A stretch of DNA of 64,000 bases from an uncultured Cytophagia bacterium (GCA_964605145.1 CAZSBG010000006.1:28788-92787), one strand, 5' to 3'. Positions 8,786 to 55,220 are shown, numbered from the stretch's first letter. Program-made: numbers and translations. Notes: generated by a model not told the origin, from the sequence alone.

Positions 8786-8820
8786 CAAAAAAAGGAGTTT
8801 GATAAATTTCAACAAACTCC
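8786..8820 (-). terminator. Rho-independent terminator downstream of the STAS gene, ending the long - strand locus
   Basis: In - strand orientation, GGAGTTTG-11 nt loop-CAAACTCC is followed by TTTTTTTG. Confidence 0.6.
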
Positions 8821-8852
8821 TGTTTTATATGAATAAAAATATTTTTCTAATT

Positions 8853-9566
8853 TTAATTCTGTTTAAATGTCTCTCTCTGAAAAAACTCAACCCTCTTTTT
8901 CTTGGAATTTAAGTTCAACTGTTTTAAATATCTAACCACCTGAAACCAGCTTAACTTTAAATTGCCGTACATCGGTGAATTTAACTCGCGCATAATTTTT
9001 ATGCTGCCATTCTCGGGATTTTCAATGACCAACTGTTTTATTTTTTCTTCGACGCTTTTATCCCCGGCATCCGACGAAATCATTTTATTTAAATACGCTT
9101 CTCTCTCGCTTGCATCGTCTTCGGAGTGAGAAGAATGACTCGTTTCTTCTTTATAACTTTCAGTGTCTCGTCTCACCTGACTGACACTTCGTTGTTCACC
9201 ACGCGGTCTGGATTTATCGAAATCAGCCACCGCATCTTCGATCGAATCGAAGGCTTTTAAAATATAATGAAATTCCAACAATTCAAATACTTCATACACG
9301 TCAGGAATCATGCCGATAAGCTTGAGGTCGCCACCTTTCTCCCGAATACCTTTAATCTCACTGATAAAAATACCCCAACCTGCGCTGCTTATGTAATCAA
9401 CATTGGACAAATCGATAATAATGTTGTAATTGTTGGCGTCTAACAAGGTTTCAAGAGAGTGTTCTAATTCTGCGGAAGTAGTCGTGTCAATATACCCACC
9501 CACCTTTATCACAGAAATATTGTTGTCAACACCTGTTTGTTTAACAGACAATTGAATTCCTTCCAT
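8853..9566 (-). CDS. STAS-domain protein (anti-sigma-factor antagonist-like) with a ~130-aa C-terminal extension
   Basis: The N-terminal ~110 aa (IKVGGYIDTTTSAELEHSLETLL ... DLSNVDYISSAGWGIFI) is a SpoIIAA/RsbV-type STAS fold. The C-terminal part is Ser/Glu-rich and then has a predicted helical domain. The track start is TTG at 9611; the ATG at 9566 preceded by GGAG is preferred. Confidence 0.75.
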   Translation of the reverse strand: MEGIQLSVKQTGVDNNISVIKVGGYIDTTTSAELEHSLETLLDANNYNIIIDLSNVDYISSAGWGIFISEIKGIREKGGDLKLIGMIPDVYEVFELLEFHYILKAFDSIEDAVADFDKSRPRGEQRSVSQVRRDTESYKEETSHSSHSEDDASEREAYLNKMISSDAGDKSVEEKIKQLVIENPENGSIKIMRELNSPMYGNLKLSWFQVVRYLKQLNLNSKKKRVEFFQRETFKQN

Positions 9567-9699
9567 CGAATACTCCAAGATGTATGATTCGCAAAATTTT
9601 CTTAAATTCAAATATAATAGAAAAACAAGTAAAAGTCAACAAAAAAATATGATTTACATCTTTCGTTTTTTTAATATACTATCTCATTTCTCTAAAAAT

Positions 9700-12600
9700 T
9701 TACTTACGATTTTTTAGTAATTCTTCAGCTTTGATAATATGATTCGAAATATCGTCTCTGCCGGGATCTAATTCGAGTAATTTTTTCCATTCCCCTATAG
9801 CTTCCTTTAACTTACCGTTATTCGCATAAATAACTCCTGTATTTTCATAAGCATCCGTATCTTTTGGATCCAGTTCTTTGACGCGAAGGTAAGCTGAAAC
9901 AGCCTTTTCGTATTGGTGGGAACGATAATAAGAGTTTCCCAGAATACTGAATGCTTCTTTGAACTCCGGATAAATTTTTGTAACTTGGAGGAATTGCTCA
10001 ACAGCTTGCTCGTAATTATGCTCATTATAAAATTTTAAACCCAGAATAAGGTGTTTCTCGCGAAGTGGGTCCTGTTTCGACAGGAATGAATTTGAATCTT
10101 CAGAATCATTTGTAACCTGGCTATTGGAAAAATTCATAAAATTATTCTCTTCGGATGCTCGTTTCTTTTCAGGATTTTTTGGCTGACCTTCGAGCACAAG
10201 CTCAGCTTCATCGTCCTGCAATTCGCCTTTTTCGAAAAATGAGATGTCCGATTCGATTTCATCCAATAAATCATTGAATGAAAATTCATCGCCCATAATT
10301 TCATCGTCCTCTAAAATATCCTGTTCATTAACTTCCGACACGTCCTGGACATCATCCAATAACTCCATGGTTTCATCTTGCGATTGATTCTCATCCTCTT
10401 CTTCGGAATCTTGAATTTCTTGTTCATCACTCAAGTCCAGTTTTCCATTATCGCCATTTTTATCCGTATCGGTTTGAAAAATTTCATTTTTAAAACTCGT
10501 TTCATCAACCAGTGTTTCGAAACCCAGATCGTCTGAGTTGTCTTCTTCAGAATCTTCGAGTAATTCATCTAAATTTATTGATGGTTTTGGTCTTTCCTGT
10601 TCTTCTTTCGGTTGATCAATTTCGTCAGGCTCGTCTGAAATTTCTTCTTTTGAATCTTCAAAGTCTGACGTTTCATTTAAATCCAAATCGTTTTCTTCAT
10701 CGTGTTCCCCCTGTTCATCCCAAATATCTTTGAAGCTGAAATCGTGCTCCAAGCCGAGATCATCAACGTCCTCAGCTTCTTCCGAAACGTCATCATCATC
10801 AAAATCAATATCGTCTTCCAGGTCAGTTGACTCTTCCTCTTCAAAAAAGATATCTTCCTCTGATTTTTCATCCGATGAATCGAAATCATCTTCACTTTCC
10901 GCAGTTTCTGATTCATCCTCGCGATGAATACTTGATTCATGCAAACCACCCTCTTCTTCATCGTCTTCTTCTTCATCCCGTTCTTTTTTGAGCAGGTCCT
11001 CAATTGGCATGGTCATCAGGCTTTCGAGGTAGAAGTTATCATCCGGATCCTTTGGCATCCTGACTTGCTTTGGCTTCCTGGGTTTATTTTTCTTTTCAAC
11101 GGGTCGTTCATCATCTTCTTCGTGACCGAGTTCTTTTTTCGATTCCTCCGGCGGCGGTGGTAAGGGAGGTTCGTCGTAGCTTCGGTCAAGAATAATCTTC
11201 CCGTCCAATGTTAACATCGGGGTACCCGGGGGTTTCATTCTCTTTTTCTTGCCTGACCGGGCGATATAAGCTTCCCGCAACTGCCGTGTGTTTAATCGAC
11301 TTCGAACGAGTTCATCATAGATTCGGCTTTCATTGATTTCCGTGTAGGTGTATTTTTCTGTGTTGAGTTCTTCGCTAATTCTCTTGGCACCAAATTCCGG
11401 ATGTTTCTTTATAATGTCATATATCTTCGTTTTTTCTTCGATACTCAGATGTTTCGCCTCGACGGCAATGGTTTCGTCAATGGAATAGGCGTCGATCCCT
11501 TCTTCTTCGAATATTTTTTTGTATTTATTATAGTATGCATAGGTTGTGATGCCTGATTCCTCACACGCTTCGCGGATATTTTTTCCGGCTAATATGGCGT
11601 TATGCGCTTTCTGCGCGCGATGCAATTCAATTTTTTCCGGCGAACTTTTTTCTTTGATGGCAACAACAGTGATATCGTCATTTTGGTCAAAGCCTTCTGT
11701 AAAAGAATGTATTTCATCTTTCAATTTATCGATAAATGCCTTGGCACGTAACGTTCCATGCTTACGTATCACATCCTGCAATCGCTCTTCACTGAACAAT
11801 TCACGGCGACCATTCATGGCCTCGGTGATACCATCGGTGTAAATCAATAGGATATCATCTTCGGCTAACTGAATTGTGTCCGATTCGATCGAACGTTTGA
11901 ACAATTCAGGATCCGGCAGTGAAATGCCCACCGGGAATCCCCTGGGATTTAAATAATACGTTTTCTTTGAACCCCGTCTGTAAAGAATCATTGGATTGTG
12001 CCCGGCGCTGGCGTAATTAATTCGTCGCTTTTTGGAATCAATGATGACATAAAACAGGGTCACAAACATTCCCTTTTTCATATCATTGACGACAAACTCG
12101 TTCACACGCGCCAACACCTCTGAAGCTGAACGAATGGAGCGCGCTTCGGTTCTCAGGGCAGTCCGAATCATTGTCATGATAAGTGAACCGGGAACGCCTT
12201 TTCCTGACACATCAGCAACGACAATCCCCAAAGTATCTTTATCCACTTCAACAAAATCGAAATAATCACCGCCAACTTGTTTGGCCGCTTCATAATGCGA
12301 TGCTATCTCGTATCCCTCCAGAACCGGGGTTTCTGCCGGAAGCAATGTCTGCTGTATATCCTGGGCCAGTTGCATTTCCTTTTGAATCCGCTCTTGTTCA
12401 GCGAGATTTTTCTGGGATTGTCGAAATTTATCCGTTATATCGCTAAAGGCTTTGGCAATCTCGCCCACTTCGTCGCCGCTATCGAAATCAATTTCGTCTT
12501 TGACATCTCCGCCATGACCCAGATCACTCACCCAGGTTGAGAGCTTGCGAAATGGATTCATTATTAAATAGATGAGCAATGTCACGCCGAGATAGCTCAG

Positions 12601-13593
12601 CGCCAAAATCATAAATGCTGTCAGAAGATCTCTCGTCCGAACCGAAGCCACCTTGCTGCTGACGACATCTTTTTGAAATTCCAGGTAGACGGTTCCAACC
12701 CTTACCCGAGAAGCATTGTATATATCGCTTACAAAGCTGTAAACTTCCGTTCCACTGTTGTCGTCTTTATATTTGTAGAGATTGGGACGTGGTTCATCGC
12801 GATCTGAGGGAATAACAAATTCCTGCCCCAGCAATGTTTCATCAGTTGAATTAATGATATAATTGGTCGTATCAGTGACTGACAGACGATAAAAATCGTC
12901 TTTTGACTCCTGAAATTCCTTAACTTTGAGCGCCACATAAAATATTTTCAAATCTTCATCTTCATTATCGATGATACTGCGGGCAATACTTTTGCCGGTA
13001 GGTCGCTCGATGGCAACAAATTCATCCAGCACTTCGTTCCCATGCTTGAAAAAATAATAGAAATATCCGATCGTAATAGCAACGAATAATATTAGTGCGG
13101 AAATGATTGAGTAGCGCATTTTCAAACTGACAGATATGGTGGGAGTCTGAATCACTTTTTTCTTGCGAAAAGAACTGACCCTGTATTTCGTCAGCCTGAG
13201 TTCATTGCCTTCTTCGGTATGATGGTATTCAATTTCATCCAGCAGCTTGCGCATGATAAAAATTCCCAGACCACCCTTTTTACCGATATCAACATACCGC
13301 TTCAAATCCGGGTCTGCAACTCGGGACGGATCAAAATATTTTCCCTGGTCGATAAGCACAACACTCATGCTGTTTTTCTTGACGATGACGCGCATTGTAA
13401 TCATGCCCTCCAGATCGCGGTAGGCATGCTTAATGATATTCGTCGCGGCCTCGTCAATGCACAGCTTGAATGCATTTACCACTGTATCCGGGAAGCTATG
13501 TTTGCGCCCTGCTTTGGTGACAAAATTCCGCAGTTCGCCCAGATAATCAATGTGAGCGGGAACTTTTATTTCTTCTTTAATCGCTGCTTTCAA
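9700..13593 (-). CDS. 1,297-aa multidomain transmembrane signalling protein. Domains, N to C: RsbW/SpoIIAB-like HATPase kinase, TM, periplasmic sensor, TM, HAMP, SpoIIE/PP2C phosphatase, HTH-like segment, ~370-aa polyacidic disordered region, TPR repeats.
   Basis: The N-terminus (FKLCIDEAATNIIKHAY ... GGLGIFIMRKL) matches anti-sigma-factor serine-kinase HATPase_c. There are two TM helices (aa ~160-182 and ~326-348). The PP2C motifs are YEIASHYEAAKQVGGDYFDF, VVADVSGKGVPGSLIM and YTDGITEA. The C-terminal TPRs are LILGLKFYNEHNYEQAVEQF.... Confidence 0.75.
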   Translation of the reverse strand: MKAAIKEEIKVPAHIDYLGELRNFVTKAGRKHSFPDTVVNAFKLCIDEAATNIIKHAYRDLEGMITMRVIVKKNSMSVVLIDQGKYFDPSRVADPDLKRYVDIGKKGGLGIFIMRKLLDEIEYHHTEEGNELRLTKYRVSSFRKKKVIQTPTISVSLKMRYSIISALILFVAITIGYFYYFFKHGNEVLDEFVAIERPTGKSIARSIIDNEDEDLKIFYVALKVKEFQESKDDFYRLSVTDTTNYIINSTDETLLGQEFVIPSDRDEPRPNLYKYKDDNSGTEVYSFVSDIYNASRVRVGTVYLEFQKDVVSSKVASVRTRDLLTAFMILALSYLGVTLLIYLIMNPFRKLSTWVSDLGHGGDVKDEIDFDSGDEVGEIAKAFSDITDKFRQSQKNLAEQERIQKEMQLAQDIQQTLLPAETPVLEGYEIASHYEAAKQVGGDYFDFVEVDKDTLGIVVADVSGKGVPGSLIMTMIRTALRTEARSIRSASEVLARVNEFVVNDMKKGMFVTLFYVIIDSKKRRINYASAGHNPMILYRRGSKKTYYLNPRGFPVGISLPDPELFKRSIESDTIQLAEDDILLIYTDGITEAMNGRRELFSEERLQDVIRKHGTLRAKAFIDKLKDEIHSFTEGFDQNDDITVVAIKEKSSPEKIELHRAQKAHNAILAGKNIREACEESGITTYAYYNKYKKIFEEEGIDAYSIDETIAVEAKHLSIEEKTKIYDIIKKHPEFGAKRISEELNTEKYTYTEINESRIYDELVRSRLNTRQLREAYIARSGKKKRMKPPGTPMLTLDGKIILDRSYDEPPLPPPPEESKKELGHEEDDERPVEKKNKPRKPKQVRMPKDPDDNFYLESLMTMPIEDLLKKERDEEEDDEEEGGLHESSIHREDESETAESEDDFDSSDEKSEEDIFFEEEESTDLEDDIDFDDDDVSEEAEDVDDLGLEHDFSFKDIWDEQGEHDEENDLDLNETSDFEDSKEEISDEPDEIDQPKEEQERPKPSINLDELLEDSEEDNSDDLGFETLVDETSFKNEIFQTDTDKNGDNGKLDLSDEQEIQDSEEEDENQSQDETMELLDDVQDVSEVNEQDILEDDEIMGDEFSFNDLLDEIESDISFFEKGELQDDEAELVLEGQPKNPEKKRASEENNFMNFSNSQVTNDSEDSNSFLSKQDPLREKHLILGLKFYNEHNYEQAVEQFLQVTKIYPEFKEAFSILGNSYYRSHQYEKAVSAYLRVKELDPKDTDAYENTGVIYANNGKLKEAIGEWKKLLELDPGRDDISNHIIKAEELLKNRK
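10083..11193 (-). repeat. Polyacidic low-complexity disordered region (D/E-rich, ~370 aa) within the multidomain signalling protein
   Basis: The coding strand is dominated by GAA/GAT/GAG codons. The Ser-rich track ORF on the opposite strand at 10730-10927 is an antisense artefact of this region. Confidence 0.8.
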
Positions 13594-23889: not shown

Positions 23890-24399
23890 TTATTCTTTTT
23901 CGGGCAGAATTCTGTGTATTTTTTCCTGCTTTAAAACTGATCTTTCATCTTCTATTATTTCCACTGTTATTCTATAGTTATCGGCAGGTTTTAAAGGATT
24001 TTTTACAATCGCGAACTTGACATCCACTTTTTCATTCGGTTTTATTTCTCTTCCAAGCCCGGATCTTTTCAGCGTCAATATCTGGTCATTGACCTCAACG
24101 TCAAATCCACCATTCATTGTTGTTGAGCTGGCTATCATCAATTCTGATAAATCAAACTCCGCTGGAAAAGTGACATTCAATTTTGCCGTCGGCGAAATCG
24201 GTTTTTCGATTCTAAATTCAATTTTGTAAATCGATTTTGCACTTGATTCAGGATGTCTGGCAATCACATTGACAGTATCGGCAGGTGCAGCGCTCGCCAC
24301 ACTGGTGAAAAAATAAATTATTGTAATAAAAAATAGTATTGGGATGAATCTGGTCTTCCCTGTCTCAAACCTATGATATGTTTCAGAAAGATACATCAT
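23890..24399 (-). CDS. Small secreted protein (169 aa), paralogous to the N-terminal domain of the giant surface protein
   Basis: Signal peptide, then SIYKIEFRIE...KLNVTFPAEFDLSEL...NGGFDVEVND...RSGLGREI...VKNPLKPADNYRITVEII. This aligns with the giant protein's AIYTFTFTT...KIKLIFPSGFDLTGV...NGGVSIQYVN...RDGTGTKV...GNNPDADNYSVKIIT. There is no T9SS CTD. Confidence 0.7.
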   Translation of the reverse strand: MMYLSETYHRFETGKTRFIPILFFITIIYFFTSVASAAPADTVNVIARHPESSAKSIYKIEFRIEKPISPTAKLNVTFPAEFDLSELMIASSTTMNGGFDVEVNDQILTLKRSGLGREIKPNEKVDVKFAIVKNPLKPADNYRITVEIIEDERSVLKQEKIHRILPEKE

Positions 24400-24716: not shown

Positions 24717-25847
24717 TTATTTCAAAATTGCCCGAAGAAGTATTAAAAATCCTTTACCATCGTTCTCTGCTAATTTTAAATTCTTCTCAGCTTTTTTGAA
24801 ATCAGGATTAATTTTCAATGCCTGACGGAATTCTTCAAGCGCATTTAAGAACAGATTTCGACACTGAATCAAATAGACAATTCCCAGACTATTCCGCAAA
24901 TCTGCATAGTCAGGATTTTTCTGAATGACATCTTTCAGTTGTTTTGTATATTGCATGATGAATTCATCATCTTTACCTTTGCCGCCAAACATAAATTTCA
25001 GATAAAACTCATTCTCAAAATCGTAGCCCACAATATCTGATCGGTCGGACTCGGCAATTTCCAGTGCGTTCACTGCTTCATCTATATTTTCGTCATCCAG
25101 ATGTTTGAGAATAGTGTCAATATTTTCCGGTTTGAAAAACTGCTTTTTCTCTTTTATTTCTGTCAACAGTGATTTAATCTTTTCAAGACGAATCACTTTA
25201 TTGGGAAGATTTTCGTTCTCTTCAATGCCTTCAACAATTGTCTTCAAAAAAACCAGACAAAGATTGAACATGGCGACTACGTAATCCGAATTCAGTTCAA
25301 TCGCTTTTTGCAATTCAGAAATTGCTTCGGAATATTTTTCCTTATTTAAATATGCGTATCCTAAATTATTATGAATATCCGCATAGTCAGAATTGTATTC
25401 AATTCCTGTATTAAAAACGTCGATAGCCTCCTGATACAATTTCTCTTTTAAATACGCTCTGCCGAGATTATTATAAGCTTCTACCATTTCAGGATCGATT
25501 TCCAGAGCCCGCTTAAATTCGGAAATCGCCTCATCCACCATATTTTTGCTCAGGAAAACCATCCCAAGTTTGTTGTTGGAAACAGCGTGCTCTATCATTT
25601 TCACTTTATCTGAAATATAGAACAGCAATTCAATGTCAGAAATCATACTTTGGTGGAGCTTGTTCACTTCGAGCTTTATGTCCGAAATACCGATTTCATT
25701 GGATAGCTCTACACCTTTTGACACTGTTACTTTTCCATCATCAAATACGCTTGATACAACCTTTTCATTGGGTTCCAGGTATTGTGTTTGAATATGGAAT
25801 TTTTTACCGCCCGCCAGAATCTCGCTATTCAATCCAATATTTTCCAT
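24717..25847 (-). CDS. TPR-repeat protein
   Basis: Multiple canonical TPR units (AYNNLGRAYLKEKLYQEAIDVF, IHNNLGYAYLNKEKYSEAISELQKAIELN, LRNSLGIVYL...) with a short N-terminal beta-rich domain. Confidence 0.7.
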   Translation of the reverse strand: MENIGLNSEILAGGKKFHIQTQYLEPNEKVVSSVFDDGKVTVSKGVELSNEIGISDIKLEVNKLHQSMISDIELLFYISDKVKMIEHAVSNNKLGMVFLSKNMVDEAISEFKRALEIDPEMVEAYNNLGRAYLKEKLYQEAIDVFNTGIEYNSDYADIHNNLGYAYLNKEKYSEAISELQKAIELNSDYVVAMFNLCLVFLKTIVEGIEENENLPNKVIRLEKIKSLLTEIKEKKQFFKPENIDTILKHLDDENIDEAVNALEIAESDRSDIVGYDFENEFYLKFMFGGKGKDDEFIMQYTKQLKDVIQKNPDYADLRNSLGIVYLIQCRNLFLNALEEFRQALKINPDFKKAEKNLKLAENDGKGFLILLRAILK

Positions 25848-39943: not shown

Positions 39944-42601
39944 ATGAAACGAACAATTTATCTCATATTATTTCTTTCTTTTCTTCTTTTTATTTTTGTA
40001 ACAGAAAATTATGGAAAATCGGTCCGGGTAGACACCCTTCGTCTGAAATATAAGGGACAGGACAAACCTCCTTATTGTTTTGTTGCTCATAAAAAAATCG
40101 GTCGGCCTAAAATTGGTCTGGCTTTAAGTGGGGGCGGTGCACGAGGATTCGCGCAAATTGGAGTGCTTCAGGTCCTTGAAGAAAATGCCATTCCCATTGA
40201 TGTTATTGTGGGAACCAGTATGGGAAGCATTGTTGGAGGATTGTATGCTTCCGGGTATTCTCCTGATCAAATCGAATACCTGGCCAAATCAATCGACTGG
40301 AGCAAAATTATGGTGGACACACCTCCACGGTCAAGCCTTTTCATTGGCCAAAAACAGGAGCGAAGCCGAACCATTCTTCAAATCAGATTTAGAGGATTGC
40401 GTCCATCGATCCCTCAGGCAATAACACCCGGACAGAAATTAACTTCAATTTTGACCAATCTCTATCTTAAAGCGGACTACCAAACAAGTTCTGATTTCGA
40501 TAAGTTAAAAATTCCATTTCAAGCTCTGGCCTGCGACCTGATCTCCGGCCAAAAAGTCGTATTAAGGAATGGAAATCTTGCCGAAGCCATGAAGGCCTCC
40601 TCTGCCGTTCCATTATTGTTTTCTCCTGTGCCGCACGACTCTATGCTTCTTGTCGATGGTGGACTCCTCAATAATATTCCTGTTGATGATGTTCGCAAGG
40701 CCGGCGCAAATATCGTACTGGCATTGGATACCGCTTCGAAATTGCGCCAAAAGAATCAATTATCTGCACCATGGGAAATCGCTGACCAGGTGACGACGAT
40801 CATGCAACGTGAAAAACTGGAGGAACAAAGAAACAAAGCTGATGTACTCATTAAAGTTGATTTAGATGATTACAAATCAGATAGCTTTCAAAAAGTCGAC
40901 CAGATAATTGAGGCAGGCAGGGAAGAAACAATAAAAAAAATCTATCCCATTAAAAAATTAATTCTGGAATCAAATAACGATACATATTCCAAATTTCCAT
41001 ACCATATAAAAAAAGTGGAAGTTACCGGCGTACAAGATACTTTAAAAAACCTGATCCTGGATATTCTGAATATTCAATTGAACGAAAAGGCTTCGTATGC
41101 TGATATTCATTCCATTTTAACATCCATTTATGAAACCGGTTATTTCGAGCATGTTGAAGCAGAATGTATTCTTGACAATTTGGAACTTTCTGTGAAATTT
41201 CTCCTGTCACCCAATCCACAATTTTGTGATGTAGTTTTCAAGGGAAATACAGTTTTCCCTGATTCAATTCTCAGCGCCCAGATTGCATGTAAAAAGAACA
41301 TGCCGGTAAATTATAAACAATCCAAGCATGATATTGCTAATATTATTCGTTTGTATAAAAGCAACGGCTATGCTATTGTTTCAATAAATGAAATCCAAAT
41401 ACATAATGATTCGTTATTTATTAATATTAACGAAGGCCTAATTTCTTCCATAAAAATTGATGGAAATGTTCGGACAAAAGATTTTGTGATATTAAGGGAA
41501 TTTCCCTTGAAAGATGGTGATATTTTTAATCTCAACAAAGCAGACGATGGCATAAATAATATACACAGCACCAATTTATTCGAAACCGTATCTCTTGAAG
41601 TAAATCGAATTGATCGATCAGCGGAGCTTGTCATAAAAATAAGAGAAAGAGCTTTCAGTATTATCAAGCTCAGTTATAATTACAATTTGAAAAAACGAAA
41701 CAAAGTGCTCTTTGAAATTGCTGATGAAAACTTATTTGGAACTGGAAATCAGCTGATGCTGCATACAATTTATGGTCCAAGGGAACAGCAATTCAATTTA
41801 AATTTTCGTGCAGATAGAATTTTTAAGTCCTTCGCCACAAGCGACTTTAATGCCTTTCACATTCGAGAAAAAAATTATGTTTACGAAAATGGAAAGCGTT
41901 CTGGTGAATATCAACAACAGGATTATGGTTTTTCGTTCTCCCTGGGGCAGCAGATTAAACGGCTCGGCGTAATTTCAGCGATCGCCTCTTTTAATGACAT
42001 TCGTCTGTCTTCCTTAAGCGGCTATGGCTTTCCGACTGGTAATTACGAATTGAAAACTATTGCACTACAGTCGATTGTAGATACTCAGGATACATATCCC
42101 TATCCACGAAAGGGAAAGTATTACAAATTCTTTTACAAAATGTCTTCCGCTACTTTCTTGAATAGCGAAATCTCATTTATCAAGCTATTCAATTCACTTG
42201 AATTGTATCATACATTTTTAAGAAGAAACACGCTTCATCCCAGGATATTTTGGGGCACATCAGATCTCACAACGCCATTTTTTGAGCAATATCGTTTGGG
42301 TGGCCAAAAATCTTTTTATGGATTATATGAAGACGAAATGATTGGCAGACATATTGTTGTGGGGAGTCTCGAATACCGTTACTTTTTTCCTTTTGCTTTT
42401 CCAGTCGATGTATATTGGACCATAAGATACGATATCGGCGCTACATGGGAAAATAGCGTGGATATCAATCCAAAAGATTTCAATGTTGGAATTGGAACTT
42501 CACTTGATATAAATACACCGGTTGGACCTTTCAGTATCGCGCTCGGTAAGTTATGGGAAGGTAAAAAAGTTCTGTATTTTTCGGCAGGCTTCACCTTTTA
42601 A
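39944..42601 (+). CDS. Patatin-like phospholipase fused to POTRA plus Omp85/BamA-like beta-barrel (PlpD-like, type Vd)
   Basis: Signal peptide. Patatin motifs GLALSGGGARGFAQIG (oxyanion), GTSMGS (GxSxG) and a DGG active-site Asp region. The C-terminal ~350 aa have surface-antigen-type barrel features. Confidence 0.85.
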   Translation: MKRTIYLILFLSFLLFIFVTENYGKSVRVDTLRLKYKGQDKPPYCFVAHKKIGRPKIGLALSGGGARGFAQIGVLQVLEENAIPIDVIVGTSMGSIVGGLYASGYSPDQIEYLAKSIDWSKIMVDTPPRSSLFIGQKQERSRTILQIRFRGLRPSIPQAITPGQKLTSILTNLYLKADYQTSSDFDKLKIPFQALACDLISGQKVVLRNGNLAEAMKASSAVPLLFSPVPHDSMLLVDGGLLNNIPVDDVRKAGANIVLALDTASKLRQKNQLSAPWEIADQVTTIMQREKLEEQRNKADVLIKVDLDDYKSDSFQKVDQIIEAGREETIKKIYPIKKLILESNNDTYSKFPYHIKKVEVTGVQDTLKNLILDILNIQLNEKASYADIHSILTSIYETGYFEHVEAECILDNLELSVKFLLSPNPQFCDVVFKGNTVFPDSILSAQIACKKNMPVNYKQSKHDIANIIRLYKSNGYAIVSINEIQIHNDSLFININEGLISSIKIDGNVRTKDFVILREFPLKDGDIFNLNKADDGINNIHSTNLFETVSLEVNRIDRSAELVIKIRERAFSIIKLSYNYNLKKRNKVLFEIADENLFGTGNQLMLHTIYGPREQQFNLNFRADRIFKSFATSDFNAFHIREKNYVYENGKRSGEYQQQDYGFSFSLGQQIKRLGVISAIASFNDIRLSSLSGYGFPTGNYELKTIALQSIVDTQDTYPYPRKGKYYKFFYKMSSATFLNSEISFIKLFNSLELYHTFLRRNTLHPRIFWGTSDLTTPFFEQYRLGGQKSFYGLYEDEMIGRHIVVGSLEYRYFFPFAFPVDVYWTIRYDIGATWENSVDINPKDFNVGIGTSLDINTPVGPFSIALGKLWEGKKVLYFSAGFTF

Positions 42602-44861: not shown

Positions 44862-47294
44862 TCACTGATTATTTTCTTTTACAATTCTTGCAACATCGGC
44901 AATCTTGTCATCTTTTCCCAGCTTAATGAGGCGTATTCCTTGTGTTGCTCTCCCCATTTTTCGAAGGGCGTTAATTGGTTGACGAATTACCTTTCCTTTT
45001 GTTGTAATGATCATCAGATCATCATCGTCAAATACTTCCTTGATAGTGACCATTTTTCCAACTTTATTAGTTGTATTCACGGTAACAATCCCCTTGCCCC
45101 CGCGTTTCGTCACTCGATACTCTGTGATAGCGGTTCGCTTGCCATATCCATTCTCAGTTACGACTAATAACGTCGAATCCTGGCGAACGGTGACCATTCC
45201 AACAACCCGATCTCCCTTTGCAAGGTTGATTCCACTGACCCCGCTAGCCTGTCTTCCCATATCACGCACATCTGATTCAAAAAAGTGAATTGCTTTGCCG
45301 AATCTCGTTCCCAAAACAATTTCCTGAGAGCCATCCGTCAGCCGTGCCTCTATTAAGTCATCACCATCCCTGATTGTTGCTGCATTTATGCCACCTCTGC
45401 GGGGATTGCTAAAAGCTGACAATACAGTTTTTTTCACCAATCCCTTCCGAGTGGCCATGATAACAAAGTGCTCATCATCGAAATCTTTTACGTTTACGAT
45501 GGATGCGATACTTTCATCTCGCTGAATATCAATCAAATTAACAATTGCTCGACCTTTCGATCCCTTTCCTGCCTGCGGAATTGAATATACTTTTAACCAA
45601 TAACATCTTCCTTTGTCTGTGAAAATCAGCATGTAATGATGTGTTGATGCAATGAAAATATGTTCAATAAAATCTTCCACATTGGTGCTGGCGCCGGAAT
45701 GACCGGTTCCTCCCCGAATTTGTCTCCTGTAACCGGACACCGGAAATCTTTTGATAAATCCGGAATGAGAAATTGTGATGACCATATCTTCTTCTGCGAT
45801 CATATCTTCTACAGAAAATTCTTCTGTTTTGATGATGATTTCAGTGCGCCGTTCATCACCGAATTTCTCTTTCAAGCCAATTAATTCTTCCTTAATAATA
45901 TTCATTCGCATTGGCTTGCTATCTAAAATCGCTCTTAATTTGTTGATTAATTTAATTGTCTCTAAATATTCTTCTTCAATTTTCTTTCTCTCCAGCCCGG
46001 TCAGTCTTTGCAGCCTCATATCCAATATTGCCTGTGCCTGAATTTCTGACAATTTGAATCGTTTCATCAATCCCTGTTTCGCAGTTTCAGGATTTTTCGA
46101 TTTTTTAATCAGAGCGATTATTTCATCGATATTATCCAGCGCAATTTTCAACCCTTCTAAAATATGGGCGCGCTTTTCAGCTTTATCCAATTGATATCTG
46201 GTTCGCCTGACAACGACTTCATGACGAAAATCGATGAAGTGCTGCAAAATTTCTTTCAAATTCAGGACCAGGGGAACACCGTCCACCAGAGCGAGCATTA
46301 TGACGCCAAAGGTTACCTGCATTTGCGTGTGACGATATAACTGATTGAGTATTACATGCGCGTGCACATCTTTGCGCAATTCGATGACAATTCGTAATCC
46401 ATCTTTATCCGATTCATCACGTATTTCTGTGATTCCCTCAATTTTACGATCATTCACAAGTGCGGCAATTTTCTCGATTAAATTTGCCTTGTTGACCATG
46501 TAAGGAATTTCACTGATCACAATCTGAAATTTTATGCCCCGAACGGATTCAACATTGGCCCTAGCACGAACTATAATTCTCCCTCTCCCGGTTGTATAGG
46601 CTTCCTTAATACCTTCTACACCATAAATGATCGCCCCGGTTGGAAAATCAGGTCCTTTGATGAATTGCATCAGGTCGTTAATCTGAATTTCAGGAGTCTC
46701 AATTTGGGCAATCAAGGCATCCACAACCTCTGTTAAATTATGCGGAGGAACATTCGTAGCCATGCCAACAGCAATACCGGATGAACCATTGACAAGCAAA
46801 TTCGGCAATAATGTGGGAAGCACCAAAGGTTCTTTCAGAGATTCATCAAAATTTGGGGTGAAATTGACTGTATCTTTATCAAGATCTTTCAGGAATTCTT
46901 CAGCAATACTTGCCAACTTTGCTTCGGTGTACCTCATCGCTGCCGGAGAATCGCCATCTATCGATCCGAAATTACCCTGGCCATTCACCAGCGGATACCG
47001 TAAAGAAAATTTTTGAACCATTCGAACCATTGAAAAATAAACTGCTGAATCGCCATGCGGATGATATTTACCCAAGACCTCACCAACAATTCTTGCACTT
47101 TTTTTGTACGACGAGTTAGGTCGCAATCCCAATTCGTGCATTCCAAAAAGCACTCTTCGGTGCACCGGTTTCAAACCATCACGAACATCAGGAAGCGCAC
47201 GCGATACAATAACCGACATCGAATAATCGATGTAGGAATCTTTCATTTCCTCTTCAATGTATATGGGAAGAATTCTCTCTCTATTGATTTCCAT
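44862..47294 (-). CDS. gyrA: DNA gyrase subunit A
   Basis: [16 protein letters not shown], the active-site Tyr region, and C-terminal beta-pinwheel repeats. 810 aa. Confidence 0.95.
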
Positions 47295-47316
47295 GTTCTT
47301 TTCTCACAATGCTATG

Positions 47317-49263
<1,947 letters not shown>

Positions 49264-49352
49264 TTATTTTTATCCCGTGAAATTAGGATGGAAAAACGTG
49301 GGGAATTTTTTGCTGTTCAGCAGATCCCCTGTAAATTTCGAAGACGAAAATC

Positions 49353-49640
49353 TTAGTACAATCTTATATCCTTAATAATATCTTTGCCCACTTTTTTATT
49401 CAATCTCTCAATGATGTTTTTTTTGAGAAAGAGAAGTTCATTTCTCCAGCTATCATTCAACACCCTAACGAATAACACGTGATGTTCAATTTTTTTCGCC
49501 TCACTCACGTCAGCTATCCTTTTTCCCACTACAATTGGCCAGAGATTTAACACCTGGTTCACCTGAACCTGTTCTTCTATGCCTAAATTTTTAATTAAAT
49601 TTTTTAATGCTTGTTCGAGGGTTTTCATCATAGCCACCAA
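49353..49640 (-). CDS. DUF721 (DciA-like) protein
   Basis: ~95-aa protein in the conserved slot between recF and gyrB. Confidence 0.6.
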   Translation of the reverse strand: MVAMMKTLEQALKNLIKNLGIEEQVQVNQVLNLWPIVVGKRIADVSEAKKIEHHVLFVRVLNDSWRNELLFLKKNIIERLNKKVGKDIIKDIRLY

Positions 49641-50765
49641 TCAACTATCTGATTTTTTCCCTTCTGCAACAGTTCCCCTGGAAATGAAGAAATATTTATC
49701 TTCATCATTTTTTTCTGATTTATTATGAACGCTCGTTGAAGTAATAAATATTTGTCCTTTATCATTTAATACATCCAGAATTCTGCTTTCCCTGCTCACA
49801 TCCAATTCTGAATAGAGATCGTCAATCAAAATAATTGGTTTTTCTTGCTTCTGATTTTCAATCAAATCAGCTTCAGCAATGACAAGCGATATTAAAGTTG
49901 TTTTGTGTTGCCCTCTCGATCCGAATTTTTTAATATCCTGATCATTAATTTTAAATATAAAATCGTCACGATGCGGACCTGTCAAACTGGTTCCACGTTT
50001 AATTTCCTTTTGTCTTTTTCTATTGAGTTTCTCTTTAAAAACTTCCTGTATATTTTCTCCTACTTTAAAACCAATATTCGGCTTATAAGCAAATGATAAA
50101 ATTTCATTATTGGTTACAAAATTCGAATAAATACCAGAGATGATTTCCGAAAAAGTTTTAGAAAATTTCATCCGATGTTCAATGAGGGCACTTCCCACCT
50201 GAATTAATTTTTCATCCCAGGGATCTAATATTGCAGGTGATTTAAAGCCGGATACTTTCCAGTCCAATAATATTGAATTTCTTTGCTGAACAATTCGATG
50301 ATATTCTTGTAAAAAACGAAAATACCTTTTATAAATTTGTGATAAAAGAATATCAACAAATTTTCTTCGTTCCGGCGGTGGTCCGAGCGTCAGATTATAT
50401 TCTTCAGGAGATGAAATTACAACAGGGAAATTTCCAATCAACTCGGATATTTTACTCAACCTTTTGCGGTTGATTGAAATTTGTTTTCCCTGATTTATGG
50501 AACAGTTAAAGACGATTTTTTGGACAGTACTATTATCAAGAACAATCTCCCCCTTTATCAGGAACTCTTTGGCTGCAAACTGAATTGCCTCTTTTTCATG
50601 TTTTGTCCTGAAACTTTTCGAAAGGCACAACAGGTAAATCGCTTCTAATAAATTTGTTTTTCCCTGAGCATTATCTCCAATAAAAAAATTCTTACGGGGA
50701 CTAAAATCTATCACCTCATGCTGATAATTTCTAAAGTCAGCTAATTCGATCGATTTGAGAATCAT
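49641..50765 (-). CDS. recF: DNA replication and repair protein RecF
   Basis: Walker A GDNAQGKTNLLEAI, SMC-like signature and Walker B (IILIDDLYSELD). Confidence 0.9.
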   Translation of the reverse strand: MILKSIELADFRNYQHEVIDFSPRKNFFIGDNAQGKTNLLEAIYLLCLSKSFRTKHEKEAIQFAAKEFLIKGEIVLDNSTVQKIVFNCSINQGKQISINRKRLSKISELIGNFPVVISSPEEYNLTLGPPPERRKFVDILLSQIYKRYFRFLQEYHRIVQQRNSILLDWKVSGFKSPAILDPWDEKLIQVGSALIEHRMKFSKTFSEIISGIYSNFVTNNEILSFAYKPNIGFKVGENIQEVFKEKLNRKRQKEIKRGTSLTGPHRDDFIFKINDQDIKKFGSRGQHKTTLISLVIAEADLIENQKQEKPIILIDDLYSELDVSRESRILDVLNDKGQIFITSTSVHNKSEKNDEDKYFFISRGTVAEGKKSDS

Positions 50766-50774
50766 GGATAGAAA

Positions 50775-51902
50775 TTATCCTTCATTTAACCGAATTGGCA
50801 TTATCAACATCATCAAATCCTCACCATCTTTCTGACTGGTCGGCGTTACGATAGCCGCGCTCACTGAATCTTTTATAAGAAAATTGACTTCTTCTGTATC
50901 GATGTTTTTTATGATATCCAAAATATAGATGCCGTTATATCCTACTTCAATGTTGTCAAAATCGTATTTAATGGCAACTTCCTCTTTTCCTTCACCACCA
51001 AATTCAATATCTTCAGAACTCACTCGCATCACATCATTGTCAATATCAAACTTGATTTGATGCGTAAACGAATTAGAGAAAATAGCCACTCGCTTGACTG
51101 CAGCCGCCAATTCATTTTTATCCACAGTCAGTTTTTTATCATTATCTATGGGGATTACATTTTCATATTTGGGATATTGTCCTTCGATAATTTTCGAGTA
51201 AACAAATGTTTCATCCAACTTAAAGACAACATGATTTTCTCCCATAGAAATATTGATATTTTTTTGCTCTTCCAATGCTTCAATATTTCTCAGAATGAGA
51301 GCCAGCGCCTTAGTTGGAACGATCACATTTTTTTGAAATTCAGGCGATTTTATATTCAAATTTTTAATACGCACCAATCGATGACCATCGGTAGCCACGC
51401 ATCGAAATTCTTCCTGCATCAATTGAAAATAGACGCCCATTAAAGTTGTTCTCAATTCATCCGTGGAAACTGCGAAAATTGTTTTATTGATCATTCTAAG
51501 CAATGTATCGCTATCAATATCGATCTGGCCTTCGGAGTCTTCCAGCACAATACTTGGAAATTCTTCTTTTGGCTGACTGCTCAGTTTATACAAACCATTT
51601 TTGGTACGAAGTGAAATTTTTCCCTGATCTTCAACCTGCAGTTCCAGCGGTATTTCAGGAAGTTCTCTTAAAATTTCGTTCATCGATCTAGCTGGCACTG
51701 CACACGATCCATCCATACTTCCGTTTACATCAATCTCGGTAGAAATGCAAATTTCCAGATCTGTACCGGTTATTTGAAGTCTATTGCCTTGAAGTTCCAG
51801 TAACATATTTTCTAAAATTGGAATCGTGGTTTTGCTCGGTATTACGCCGACGACTTTTTGCAATCCTTTTTGAAGTACACCTTTGGATACTGTAAAGTGC
51901 AT
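50775..51902 (-). CDS. dnaN: DNA polymerase III beta sliding clamp
   Basis: Three-domain ~375-aa clamp pattern; position between dnaA and recF. Confidence 0.9.
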   Translation of the reverse strand: MHFTVSKGVLQKGLQKVVGVIPSKTTIPILENMLLELQGNRLQITGTDLEICISTEIDVNGSMDGSCAVPARSMNEILRELPEIPLELQVEDQGKISLRTKNGLYKLSSQPKEEFPSIVLEDSEGQIDIDSDTLLRMINKTIFAVSTDELRTTLMGVYFQLMQEEFRCVATDGHRLVRIKNLNIKSPEFQKNVIVPTKALALILRNIEALEEQKNINISMGENHVVFKLDETFVYSKIIEGQYPKYENVIPIDNDKKLTVDKNELAAAVKRVAIFSNSFTHQIKFDIDNDVMRVSSEDIEFGGEGKEEVAIKYDFDNIEVGYNGIYILDIIKNIDTEEVNFLIKDSVSAAIVTPTSQKDGEDLMMLIMPIRLNEG

Positions 51903-52450
51903 TTTAGACTCCTTTATCGTTCAATTTATTTTATCGAAAATAATATTGTATAATATAAAGAATAAAAATAAAATTATCAATACTTTTTTCTATCCATAAA
52001 AGTTAATCAGTTTTGTGTGATTTCAATTTGGATACAGAACAAAATGTGACGCTTGTAATATAAAATATATATAATAAATATTAAAGAATAGTTATTATAG
52101 TATAGATGTTGATAACTGACTTCTATGAAAAATTTATTTGTTATTTTCAATAAAAATAAAGGAATTAAAGAGAAGGAGTGTTGTGAATAACTTTGGAATG
52201 AATGTTGAGAAATTGTTAATATGGTTACGGGTTATTCACGTGTATTTAAAATTTTTGAAACTGGCTATGTTTTGGCTAAATTATTCACATCGATTGATAT
52301 CGTTCATGTGTTCGTCTGGGGATAAATTGTGAATAATAAAAAATGATATAATAAATTGGTTGTACATGAATTAAACACATTTTTACTGAAATTTGCAAAA
52401 TGGAAATGTTGATAACCAGTATATTTTCATTTTGGAATAAGTTCAAGAAT
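51903..52450. promoter_or_regulatory. Candidate oriC: AT-rich dnaA-dnaN intergenic region with four DnaA boxes
   Basis: TTATTCACA (matching TTATNCACA) at 52281-52289, and its reverse complement TGTGAATAA at 52182-52190 and 52328-52336. TTATTCACG at 52232-52240. Weaker TTATCAACA-type sites nearby. Classical position downstream of dnaA. Confidence 0.6.
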
Positions 52451-53818
52451 TTATATACTGGCGATCTCGATTTTTCTCTCCAAAACAGATAAATCTTCTT
52501 TCACCGCTTTGTCATGTTTTCTGAGTTGATCGATAGTTTGAATTGCATGAACGACAGTGGAATGGTCTCTGCCTCCAAAATGTAAGCCAATTGTCTTCAG
52601 GGAATGATGTGTCATTCGTTTTGCCAGATACATGGATACTTGTCTTGCCAGAGCAATTTCTTTTTTACGGTTTTTTGCTCGGATGAGATCTTCCGGGATG
52701 GAATAATGTTCGCAGACAATTCGTTGAATTTCCTCAATACTCAAATTTCGCTTGGATCCCAGACTGAGATCTTTTAATACGCTTTTTGCCAGGTCTGTGG
52801 TGATATCTTTTCCCTGGAGCGAGGAAATTGCAAATAATCTGATCAGAGAACCTTCGAGTTCGCGAATATTTGATGTGATATTTGTTGCAAACAAATGGAT
52901 AATTTCCTGCGGAAGCCTGAGGTTGTTTTCTTCAGCTTTTTTCTGAAGAATTGCAATTCGGGTTTCAAGATCAGGAGGTTGAATATCCACAACTAATCCC
53001 CATTGGAAGCGGGATGTGAGTCTTTCTTCCATTCCTTTGAGTTCTTTAGGGGGACGATCTGAAGTGAGAACAATCTGTTTTCCTTTTTGATGCAAAGAGT
53101 TGAATGTATGAAAAAACTCTTCTTGGGTTCGCTCTTTGTTAGTAAAAAATTGAATATCGTCGACCAGAAGAATATCTACATTTCTATAATTGTTGCTGAA
53201 TTCAGTTGTCTTGTTATTTTGGATGGAGTCGATAAATTCGATTGTGAATTTCTCACTAGATACGTATAAAACCCGTTTGGCCAATCCTTCAATTTTGGTA
53301 TAGTTGCCAATTGCCTGAATGAGGTGTGTTTTTCCCAATCCAACTCCGCCGTAAATGACAAGCGGATTGAATGTGGTTTTACCCGGGGATTGCGATACAG
53401 CAAGGGAAGCAGCTCGGGCAAATTGATTATTGGCGCCTTCAACAAAATTTTCGAAAGTGTATCGTTCGTTGAGCTGACTTTCGAAATCGACATTATTGTA
53501 AATAGGTTTTTCCTGAACAGGAATCTTGATTGAATCGGAAGAACCGTTGATGACCTCAGGCTTGTCATTCACTACGATCGAGTAGAGCAATTCCGCATCA
53601 TCGCCAATCGTACGCTGCAATGCTCGATTAATTAATTCTTTGTAATGCGTCTCCAGAAATTCATAGAAGAACTGGCTCGGGATTTGAACTGTCAATTTGT
53701 TTTTATCTAAATTGACTGGCGTAATGGGCTTGAACCAGGTTATGAAAGTTTGATCGTTTAAATTCTCTTTTATGTTAGATAAGAATTTTGACCAGATGTC
53801 TACGCAATTGGGTGTCAT
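52451..53818 (-). CDS. dnaA: Chromosomal replication initiator DnaA
   Basis: AAA+ Walker A GGVGLGKTHL, sensor motifs, C-terminal DNA-binding domain (IGLHFGGRDHSTVVHA). Confidence 0.95.
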   Translation of the reverse strand: MTPNCVDIWSKFLSNIKENLNDQTFITWFKPITPVNLDKNKLTVQIPSQFFYEFLETHYKELINRALQRTIGDDAELLYSIVVNDKPEVINGSSDSIKIPVQEKPIYNNVDFESQLNERYTFENFVEGANNQFARAASLAVSQSPGKTTFNPLVIYGGVGLGKTHLIQAIGNYTKIEGLAKRVLYVSSEKFTIEFIDSIQNNKTTEFSNNYRNVDILLVDDIQFFTNKERTQEEFFHTFNSLHQKGKQIVLTSDRPPKELKGMEERLTSRFQWGLVVDIQPPDLETRIAILQKKAEENNLRLPQEIIHLFATNITSNIRELEGSLIRLFAISSLQGKDITTDLAKSVLKDLSLGSKRNLSIEEIQRIVCEHYSIPEDLIRAKNRKKEIALARQVSMYLAKRMTHHSLKTIGLHFGGRDHSTVVHAIQTIDQLRKHDKAVKEDLSVLERKIEIASI

Positions 53819-54429
53819 TGGGTATGCCTTTTTTGATTAGGGTGAAAAGTTGTCAACAAATTATTAACAATATTTCAGGGATGCTAATAATTTTAAAGTC
53901 CAATATTCTAAAAATACATAAATTAGAAATAAGCGTATATTTAATGTTATAATAATAAATATATTGTTTTAAATAAATAAAAATAAATAAGATAGAAAAC
54001 TTCAATAATTCAGGATGAAATATGAATACTATGATAAGTAAAAATGAGGATGGATTGGAAGTAATTTATAAAATATCAACATTGATAAATTGTCAACATT
54101 TTATAAATACATGCGCCCGATATCCCTTGCTTTAAATTTAGAAATTTTATTGCAAATGTCAAATAAAAAATTAAAAATGTAAAAATTTGTGACCGGAAAG
54201 AAATAATTACGATTATAATTATATAACGTTCATGTTTTTTAATGTGATAATGCCAAATATGATTAAAAACAGGAGGAAATCTTGATTACTTATCATACAA
54301 TTTTGGAGATGTCTCTTTTTGAATGGCACAAAAATAGCTTGACTTTTATTTAAAATTTTAATACTTTTATGAGATAATTTTTTGAAAGATCAGGTATTTT
54401 TTGGAATAAAAAATTGTGAGGATTTTGTA
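53819..54429. other. Very AT-rich divergent dnaA / rpmH intergenic region (promoters; possible DNA-unwinding element)
   Basis: ~610 bp of roughly 80% A+T with repeated TTGTCAACA and TGATAA motifs and no ORF. Confidence 0.4.
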
Positions 54430-54573
54430 ATGAAAAGAACATTTCAACCCAGCAGAAAAAAAAGAGCAAATAAACACGGTTTCAGAGAAAGAATGAGCAC
54501 GAAAAACGGCCGTATAATATTGAAAAGAAGAAGAGCTAAAGGCAGAAAAAAATTATCTGTTAGTGATGAATAA
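54430..54573 (+). CDS. rpmH: 50S ribosomal protein L34
   Basis: [44 protein letters not shown]. The track ORF includes 16 spurious upstream codons. Confidence 0.95.
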
Positions 54574-54590
54574 AGTTGTTCGGTCTTTTT

Positions 54591-54941: not shown

Positions 54942-54981
54942 TACGCTTTTAAAGGATTTGTCAATATATAGTATTTGATAT

Positions 54982-55191
54982 ATGAAATATGTACTAATGG
55001 CAGTCATAAAGTTTTACCAAAAGGCGATTTCGCCTTTTTTTTTACCATCATGTCGATTTGTACCAACTTGCTCAGAATATTCATATCAGGCATTAAAGAA
55101 ATATGGCTTCTTCAAAGGTACTGCTCTGGCTGTTTGGCGAATTTTACGATGCAATCCCTTCAATAAAGGCGGATACGATCCCTTGGTATAA
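54982..55191 (+). CDS. yidD: Membrane protein insertion efficiency factor YidD
   Basis: YQK.ISP..LP.SCRF.PTCSEYS..AL.KYG motif. Confidence 0.9.
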
Positions 55192-55220
55192 TTCAATTTT
55201 AATCGATATAGGATAATGTA

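Follow-up and report, generated by a model that had tools for sequence, protein, structure and literature searches.

The minus strand of a 64,000-nucleotide (nt) stretch of DNA assigned to an uncultured Cytophagia bacterium (GCA_964605145.1 CAZSBG010000006.1:28788-92787; the whole stretch is referred to below as the window) carries an open reading frame (ORF) for a protein of 1297 amino acids (aa) which combines an RsbW-like serine kinase, a transmembrane (TM) single-Cache sensor, a HAMP domain and a PP2C phosphatase with a transposase-type helix-turn-helix (HTH) module, an acidic disordered region and tetratricopeptide repeats (TPR). The gene is followed by that of a small STAS-domain protein, the predicted substrate of both enzymatic domains, and is preceded by genes for a PorV-like outer-membrane protein and a giant surface protein with a sorting domain of the type IX secretion system (T9SS). 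On balance, we favor as the best explanation that the protein is a membrane-anchored, dual-function regulator of a partner-switching module, resembling SypE of Vibrio fischeri.

The 1297-aa protein is a real membrane protein of an uncultured bacterium of the KSB1 phylum. Its TTG start codon is preceded by GAGAGGA, and the N-termini of its homologues lie no more than three residues from the same point. A search with aa 1-790 recovered the full-length architecture in more than 100 protein clusters (57-97% identity), nearly all of them 1210-1365 aa long and displaying the same set of Pfam domains. The assemblies behind these clusters are from NCBI, JGI, ENA and Logan, and the labels read candidate division KSB1, Candidatus Zhuqueibacterota or Calditrichaeota; KSB1, an uncultured phylum of the Fibrobacteres-Chlorobi-Bacteroidetes (FCB) superphylum, has been renamed Zhuqueibacterota (PMC11683472). 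Some contigs carrying the gene cassette, which is strongly restricted to this lineage, bear other labels, namely ‘uncultured Cytophagia’, ‘Actinomycetota’, ‘Deferribacteres’, ‘Bacteroidetes’ or ‘Hodarchaeota archaeon’ (L008, L010, L053, L073, L076, L079 and protein P0320); these probably reflect wrong taxonomic assignment or KSB1/Calditrichota DNA binned with other genomes.

Domains were assigned with Pfam and NCBIfam, and the conservation of catalytic residues was read from an alignment of 117 sequences. The N-terminal domain contains the motifs of the Bergerat fold (N-box E48/N52, G1 D82/G84 and G2 G107/G108/G110), all invariant in the alignment. Its closest match among sequences of the Protein Data Bank (PDB) is RsbW (6m36, E = 1.4e-14), followed by the anti-sigma F factor SpoIIAB. 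The nearest NCBIfam model is likewise that of the anti-sigma B factor RsbW, with scores below the equivalog cutoffs (NF003144 and TIGR01924, 70.3 versus 145 and 59.5 versus 155); by this measure, the kinase is RsbW-like and not an RsbW orthologue. The phosphatase domain matches Pfam SpoIIE with 173 bits against a cutoff of 25, and residues D443, D446, D461, G464, D587, G588, D639 and D640 are invariant in the same homologues. The PDB sequences matching it best are RssB (3eq2), Rv1364c (3ke6, E = 8.7e-14) and 6k4e, and in NCBIfam aa 323-646 are nearest to the membrane phosphatase SiaA (58 versus a cutoff of 700). A preliminary description of the gene had allowed that careful alignment might reveal the loss of catalytic residues; instead, every kinase and PP2C motif residue is retained throughout, and both domains are apparently competent for catalysis. 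It had also placed both enzymatic domains in the cytoplasm, on either side of a TM sensor, which agrees with the Pfam matches and with the two hydrophobic segments considered below. Its domain coordinates were correct, and its account ended at about aa 780, leaving the remaining 500 residues undescribed; the HTH-like tail of the STAS protein and the conserved PorV-like and T9SS cargo genes upstream were likewise not part of it.

Hydropathy analysis identified exactly two segments of TM grade, separated by an acidic loop of 139 aa where a periplasmic domain of ~145 aa had been anticipated. This loop displays the hallmarks of the Cache/PDC fold: it starts with a long helix, continues with a PAS-like alpha/beta core and ends in a helix that runs into a TM segment, the whole placed between two such segments. 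A HAMP domain (PF00672) is precomputed in most homologues. The distance from the end of the HAMP domain to the GGDY motif of the phosphatase is 58 aa in 117 out of 117 sequences, and the same offset is found in 78 of the 80 divergent representatives, whereas the tether connecting the kinase to the first TM segment varies from 21 to 36 aa across the 117 homologues and is Pro-containing, poorly conserved and variable in sequence. Because the former is fixed and the latter is not, the phosphatase is probably the regulated activity, and it appears somewhat probable from this pattern that the periplasmic signal acts chiefly on it. A ligand-controlled toggling of both activities, as initially proposed, is accordingly not favored. 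It has been demonstrated experimentally that a coiled-coil linker dimerizes and activates RsbU, and AlphaFold2 models depict dimers of PPM phosphatases joined by crossing helical linkers to dimeric sensors, HAMP domains included (PMC12143880). The kinase is then probably a flexibly tethered and constitutive counter-activity; an unregulated tethered kinase opposed by a sensor-regulated phosphatase fits the canonical logic of partner switching.

The STAS protein, the start codon of which was set by alignment with orthologues, matches Pfam STAS (E = 7.7e-18, 64.7 bits) and TIGR00377 (62 bits versus a cutoff of 53.45). Its STAS domain is nearly invariant, and the motif DYISSAGWG, with S60 and S61, is identical in all 121 STAS sequences, so that the adjacent STAS substrate with a serine in the DYISSAG region, predicted initially, is present as described. 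We take the position of Ser61 to be equivalent to that of the phospho-acceptors S58 of SpoIIAA, S56 of RsbV and S56 of SypA (compare PMC8256260). It is likely that the N-terminal domain phosphorylates S61 and that the PP2C domain removes the phosphate again. The STAS gene is preceded by a predicted sigma70-type promoter. Its TTGAC element is found in 69 out of 73 loci, with the consensus TTGACTTTT-N12-TTATATT, also written TTTTTaTTGACTTTT-N12-TtATATT, located ~70-80 nt upstream of the STAS start codon and at the equivalent position in loci L006-L085. Given this conserved placement, the STAS gene has its own promoter, apart from that of the large gene, and the predicted elements show that the FCB-superphylum bacteria considered here apparently use the classical -35/-10 consensus. 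A search of the region between the two genes in the 73 loci for a conserved operator or palindrome returned only the promoter and a Shine-Dalgarno sequence. A hairpin followed by a T-run (GGAGTTTG-11 nt-CAAACTCC-TTTTTTT), found by inspection of the sequence that follows the STAS gene, is the probable end of the transcription unit; its loop exceeds 8 nt, which is why it was missed by the terminator scanner.

The segment after the phosphatase, which the preliminary description had called HTH-like, indeed is so: the N-terminal region of IS481 transposases is matched by all 25 family members sampled (best E = 3.3e-10) and that of IS3 transposases by 22 of the 25. In NCBIfam, aa 659-775 are nearest to the N-terminus of IS481 transposases, below the equivalog cutoff, and aa 655-795 align to positions 2-122 of the 284 in the IS481 model. 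Pfam yields a weak HTH_28 match at aa 666-702 of the 1297-aa protein, and HTH_32, HTH_28 and HTH_21 are matched in 15, 13 and 11 of the 25 members, respectively. In the AlphaFold2 model, the region forms two three-helix bundles with a low-confidence linker between them; a Foldseek search with it gave no significant match, and a profile of the region compared with PDB sequences matched only acetyltransferases and antibodies, spuriously. The module thus resembles the N-terminal HTH_28 plus HTH_21/HTH_32 region of the DDE transposases of the IS481 and IS3 families. Unlike these, it comes without an rve/DDE core, to which no part of the 1297-aa protein is matched by Pfam, NCBIfam or the IS481 model, as well as without terminal repeats or mobility, and it is embedded in a signalling protein. 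Since it is conserved there at 64-87% (aa 651-800), on par with the catalytic domains, and lacks the DDE core, its sequence reads as a domesticated DNA-binding module of a transposase, and direct binding to DNA is plausible. The basic tail of the STAS protein is homologous to the second lobe of the module (BLASTP E = 2e-6; hhalign probability 96.5%, E = 7.3e-10); therefore, enzyme and substrate carry the same module, which is basic in both (pI 9.7-9.85).

The acidic linker that follows spans 290-430 aa across the family, consists of D and E to 30% and contains only a few short conserved islands, among them L..P.E.LL.K at aa ~859-872, SF at ~953 and F.DL at ~1106. The motif [hydrophobic]-x-[DE]-L-L-[DE] also recurs in it. 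Islands and motifs of this kind could serve as peptides that bind the TPR or mask the HTH. At the C-terminus, three or so TPR repeats give strong Pfam matches at aa ~1180-1282. The possibility that they are a fused copy of the TPR gene found at the Zixibacteria loci (see below) was rejected, the similarity being that of TPR in general and the orthologue of that gene being the ORF at 24717-25847.

In the window, the order of genes along the minus strand is: TPR protein, a 169-aa ORF, the 2701-aa cargo protein, the PorV/PorQ-like protein, the large gene, the STAS gene, the terminator and the unrelated metH. The PorV-like protein scores above the cutoff of its family model and below those of the specific PorV and PorQ equivalogs, and the last ~100 aa of the cargo match the T9SS sorting domain TIGR04183 (25.3 bits versus a cutoff of 23). 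In three KSB1 loci with 58-88% identity, the order cargo, PorV-like gene, large gene, STAS gene is kept, whereas the flanks differ. A genome scan anchored on the STAS alignment identified at least 535 loci encoding a STAS relative in species-representative genomes, the best 80 of which were examined. The STAS gene lies immediately downstream of the large gene in all loci examined. Where the contig leaves sufficient room, the large gene, with kinase, PP2C, HTH and TPR, is found directly upstream of the STAS gene in 64 of 65 loci (in the exception, it is split within the acidic linker) and the PorV-like gene immediately upstream of the large gene in 58 of 59; an ORF bearing the C-terminal sorting domain (CTD) precedes the PorV-like gene in 57 of 58 loci.

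An exhaustive HMMER search with aa 1-660 against 1.84 billion representatives extended the family down to ~28% identity, with colinear proteins of 637-2253 aa containing the kinase, two TM segments and the PP2C domain; most of them carry an HTH module and many contain TPR. Ranked right after these kinase-bearing relatives are ~40 proteins of ~500 aa which lack the kinase and have a TM-sensor-HAMP-PP2C layout. The reverse order, with PP2C before the kinase, is found in only 1 of the 150 nearest representatives. The most distant named members belong to candidate division Zixibacteria, two loci of which encode, in this order, a TPR protein, a Big_5 protein, a FlgD_ig/CTD protein, a PorV-like/TPR protein, a kinase-sCache-PP2C protein, a STAS protein of 238 aa and a TPR protein. 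Here the STAS proteins can be aligned from end to end, with the tail, the kinases retain the catalytic motifs at ~31% identity, and the gene order is kept at 31-33% identity although the flanking genes differ. Near-perfect synteny thus spans KSB1/Zhuqueibacterota, Calditrichota and Zixibacteria.

The cargo ranges from 555 aa in Zixibacteria (L004 6500-8167) to 5110 aa in one KSB1 genome (L002 1-7810), and its conservation is limited to the C-terminal sorting domain, as expected of a rapidly diversifying surface or adhesin protein. The TPR protein of ~380 aa is conserved in the cluster but shifts in position, being located upstream of the cargo in the window and directly after the STAS gene in Zixibacteria (L004 12745-13911; L005 12112-13281), and the 169-aa ORF between the TPR gene and the cargo (23890-24399, minus strand) has no match in Pfam or NCBIfam. 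A few kb downstream of the cassette, many KSB1 genomes encode one or two additional HAMP-SpoIIE paralogues of ~780-906 aa without a kinase domain, as in L003 (19651-23792) and, ~5-8 kb downstream of the STAS gene, in L016, L024, L030, L032, L040, L046 and L061; a given STAS protein might be the target of several phosphatases.

Among characterized systems, the closest in layout is that of SypE, in which an N-terminal serine kinase of ~140 aa that requires N52 is followed by a central regulatory domain and, at the C-terminus, by PP2C, and which acts on the STAS protein SypA, the pair being encoded in the biofilm polysaccharide locus syp of V. fischeri (PMC3610818); SypE has been termed a ‘dual serine kinase/phosphatase’ (PMC8256260). 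As compared by published layout, the 1297-aa protein shares with SypE the ~140-aa kinase with Asn52, a regulatory module and the PP2C domain in the same order. In both cases, the two enzymatic domains target a single STAS protein (here by prediction) encoded in the same cell-surface or biofilm cluster, and no dedicated sigma factor is known for SypE/SypA (PMC3610818, PMC8256260). The differences are also clear. SypE has a cytoplasmic REC domain fed by a phosphorelay where the present protein has TM1-sCache-TM2-HAMP, and neither Pfam nor NCBIfam yields a Response_reg match in the 1297 aa; because its central module is a transmembrane Cache-HAMP and not REC, the protein is not a member of the SypE group. 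Furthermore, unlike SypE, it has an extra 650 aa (the transposase-type HTH, acidic disordered linker and TPR); its STAS partner, unlike SypA, has an HTH-like tail; and its locus, unlike syp, contains a T9SS cargo and a PorV-like protein instead of polysaccharide genes.

Other fusions differ in domain order. HsbR/HsbA of Pseudomonas aeruginosa and CrsR/CrsA of Shewanella oneidensis similarly combine PP2C and an RsbW-like domain in one chain with a cognate STAS protein; however, HsbR and CrsR are soluble REC-PP2C-kinase proteins, with the kinase at the C-terminus and phosphorelay input, which act on HsbA and CrsA (PMC6482189) and for which output via RpoS and FlgM/FliA has been demonstrated. Rv1364c of Mycobacterium tuberculosis likewise unites a sensor with PP2C phosphatase and RsbW-like kinase domains, but is cytoplasmic and has the order PAS-PP2C-kinase (anti-sigma)-STAS, with the STAS substrate fused to the enzymes (PMC12143880). 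Conversely, aa ~150-650 match the layout of the membrane phosphatases RsbU of Chlamydia trachomatis and SiaA of P. aeruginosa, the kinases of which (RsbW and SiaB) are separate proteins, whereas here the kinase is fused upstream of the first TM segment. These precedents qualify two statements of the preliminary description: kinase-phosphatase fusions acting on STAS proteins have already been characterized (SypE, HsbR/CrsR and Rv1364c), and an N-terminal kinase is not unprecedented, since SypE has the same order (PMC3610818). What is undescribed is the Cache-HAMP sensor in the position of REC, the HTH common to the enzyme and the STAS tail, and the synteny with T9SS genes. In the searchable literature, we found no description of an N-terminal kinase joined to a transmembrane sensor phosphatase, of a transposase-derived HTH common to enzyme and substrate, or of an acidic linker and TPR tail in such a protein, and no link between T9SS (the cargo/PorV-like cassette) and partner switching.

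We propose the following sequence of events for a SypE-like regulator of this kind. The N-terminal RsbW-like kinase, flexibly tethered at the inner face of the membrane, would phosphorylate Ser61 of the adjacent STAS protein, and the PP2C domain, C-terminal to the sensor, would strip this phosphate. The periplasmic single-Cache domain would sense a ligand or the state of the envelope, and its signal, passing via TM2, HAMP and the linker of fixed length, would turn the (probably dimeric) phosphatase on or off. In this way, the sensor would set the ratio of phosphorylated to unphosphorylated STAS mainly through the phosphatase, with the kinase as a constitutive opposing activity. That one chain could both phosphorylate and dephosphorylate a STAS protein is supported by the precedent of SypE/SypA in a surface/biofilm locus (PMC3610818, PMC8256260). 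The output would probably be control of the co-encoded T9SS cassette (the giant CTD surface protein, PorV-like barrel and TPR proteins), that is, surface-adhesin or biofilm-type behavior, and would probably be exerted through the basic transposase-derived HTH modules of the enzyme and the STAS tail, binding either DNA or a partner. Of these elements, that the output concerns the T9SS surface-protein cassette is about an even call, whereas its delivery through DNA binding by the HTH modules is less likely than not. In the most specific version, a sigma-independent, membrane-embedded switch, STAS phosphorylation would gate the binding of both HTH modules to DNA or to each other, the acidic linker possibly serving as an intramolecular DNA mimic or competitor, and the Cache signal would be coupled directly to transcription of the T9SS adhesin cassette; we regard this version as unlikely.

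Several observations weigh against the proposed scheme. First, scores for the RsbW, SiaA and SpoIIE equivalog models of NCBIfam are all far below the cutoffs, and function is for this reason transferred at the superfamily level only. Second, in HsbR and CrsR the RsbW-type domain additionally sequesters a sigma factor, binding RpoS (PMC6482189). Third, the HTH module is missing from one Zixibacteria enzyme whose STAS partner retains the tail, which means that the two are not obligatorily paired. Fourth, the synteny with T9SS genes shows a functional link and not its direction. Finally, all organisms carrying the gene are uncultured and represented by metagenome-assembled genomes (MAGs). The Zixibacteria pair also bears on the tail itself: because the tail is kept where the enzyme has no HTH, it has a partner besides that module, which weakens the possibility that it is merely a docking partner for the HTH of the enzyme.

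The most serious rival is a classical anti-sigma switch, following RsbU/V/W or CrsR/CrsA-RpoS, in which the membrane-tethered RsbW-like domain would hold a sigma factor encoded elsewhere until displaced by dephosphorylated STAS, the HTH, acidic linker and TPR being accessory. The resemblance of the kinase to RsbW and then to SpoIIAB in PDB, its top match to RsbW in NCBIfam and the RpoS-binding kinase domains of the HsbR and CrsR fusions all speak for it. However, in six annotated loci there is no sigma factor gene in the cassette or within ~10 kb, whereas the STAS gene is always found together with those for T9SS; the score of 70 for the RsbW equivalog remains far from 145; and the RsbW-like kinases SypE and SiaB are able to act without a sigma factor (PMC3610818, PMC8256260). 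We consider the anti-sigma switch possible and the less probable of the two; it shares the phospho-cycle with the SypE-like scheme, differing in output, and both could coexist. Considerably less probable is that the N-terminal HATPase_c_2 domain functions as RsbT does, as an intramolecular activator of the PP2C domain that is released or sequestered by an RsbS-like STAS protein. RsbT also is a HATPase_c_2 protein and activates RsbU through its N-terminal domain and linker (PMC12143880), and fusion of an activator with its target would be a simple Rosetta-stone event; yet the sequence matches are to RsbW and SpoIIAB, with no RsbT-named protein among the matches listed, two TM helices and a variable tether intervene between the kinase and the PP2C linker, the phosphatase is already served by its own Cache-HAMP input, and no RsbR-like or stressosome genes are located nearby in three KSB1 loci. 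An artefact, whether a misassembly of the kind considered in the preliminary description, a frameshift fusion or a decayed pseudo-enzyme, has a negligible probability and is rejected because the unbroken architecture recurs in 64 of 65 species-level loci as well as in the >100 protein clusters, which come from independent sources and assemblies, no catalytic residue varies, and the one locus in its favor, L039, where the gene is present as two ORFs of 880 and 451 aa, is broken in the acidic linker and not between the kinase and the phosphatase. In this single MAG (L039 6099-9891), the first ORF extends from the kinase to the HTH and the second contains the TPR; the split is either due to a frameshift introduced when low-complexity DNA was sequenced or represents a natural version in two genes.

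Table 1. Features of the 1297-aa protein, the STAS gene and the adjoining cassette (positions in the window; residues are those of the encoded protein)
Feature	Residues	Position	Strand	Remarks
Whole ORF	1-1297	9700..13593	-	TTG start at 13593, stop at 9700; kinase, TM1, sCache, TM2, HAMP, PP2C, HTH, acidic disordered region, TPR
RsbW-like GHKL Ser kinase, HATPase_c_2	12-136	13186..13560	-	Pfam E 5.6e-27, 94.7 bits vs cutoff 27.4
Kinase-to-TM1 tether	137-159	13117..13185	-	Basic
TM1	~160-183	13045..13116	-	Kyte-Doolittle 19-residue window >1.6; K/R-rich segment just before
Periplasmic single-Cache/PDC sensor	184-322	12628..13044	-	
TM2	~323-345	12559..12627	-	Hydropathy
HAMP	~346-383	12445..12558	-	Pfam match 339-383, 25.6 bits vs cutoff 25
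HAMP-to-PP2C linker	384-451	12241..12444	-	Fixed length
SpoIIE/RsbU-type PP2C (PPM) Ser phosphatase	452-647	11653..12240	-	Pfam E 8.5e-51
Bipartite transposase-type HTH	655-795	11209..11631	-	HTH_28-like lobe and HTH_21/HTH_32-like lobe
Acidic disordered linker	~800-1176	10066..11196	-	Net charge -116, low-complexity
C-terminal TPR	~1177-1290	9724..10065	-	Pfam TPR_2 E 3.7e-16, TPR_1, TPR_11
Predicted sigma70-type promoter of STAS gene		9611..9639 (stretch 9611-9645)	-	TTGACT-17-TATATT
Cognate STAS protein	237 aa	8853..9566	-	ATG at 9566; STAS domain, variable linker, basic HTH_21-like tail
Codon of predicted phospho-acceptor Ser61	61	9384..9386	-	DYIS-S61-AGWG
STAS C-terminal tail	169-237	8856..9062	-	Basic, pI 9.85; homologous to HTH lobe 2
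Hairpin and T-run after STAS gene		8787..8822	-	Probable terminator
PorV/PorQ-family outer-membrane barrel	640 aa	13626..15548	-	C-terminal TPR/coiled-coil extension; NF033709 136 bits vs cutoff 90
Giant surface protein	2701 aa	15566..23671	-	T9SS type A C-terminal sorting domain
TPR protein	376 aa	24717..25847	-	Pfam TPR; blastp E 1.4e-29 and 2.4e-25 to downstream TPR proteins of Zixibacteria

Elsewhere in the window, dnaA (52451-53818), dnaN, recF, gyrB and gyrA are grouped on the minus strand (44862-55200), the GC skew changes sign at ~52 kb and the GC content drops to 0.30 at 54-56 kb; the origin of chromosomal replication probably lies at ~53.9-55.2 kb. The cassette lies ~40 kb from this predicted origin and is co-oriented with replication. 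On the plus strand, positions 39944-42601 encode an 885-aa protein in which a patatin-like phospholipase is fused to POTRA repeats and an Omp85 barrel.

Partner switching is a major currency of bacterial signalling, the inputs and outputs of which are mostly unknown beyond Firmicutes and a few Proteobacteria. The system described here is unusually compact and complete: one chain unites the sensor, the two opposing enzymes and a candidate DNA-binding output, the gene of the substrate lies next to it, and synteny ties the pair to genes for a T9SS cargo and a PorV-like protein in at least three uncultured phyla of the FCB superphylum. The rigid linker between HAMP and PP2C, as opposed to the floppy tether of the kinase, provides a testable prediction as to which activity is controlled by the signal in dual kinase/phosphatase regulators. 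If the link to the cassette is regulatory, it would be the first case in the searchable literature in which a partner switch controls type IX secretion or the display of surface adhesins, and would offer a handle on the surface biology of phyla without cultured members. The sigma-independent HTH switch, if true, would mean that T9SS cargo is regulated by a previously unrecognized route which several uncultured FCB phyla have conserved.

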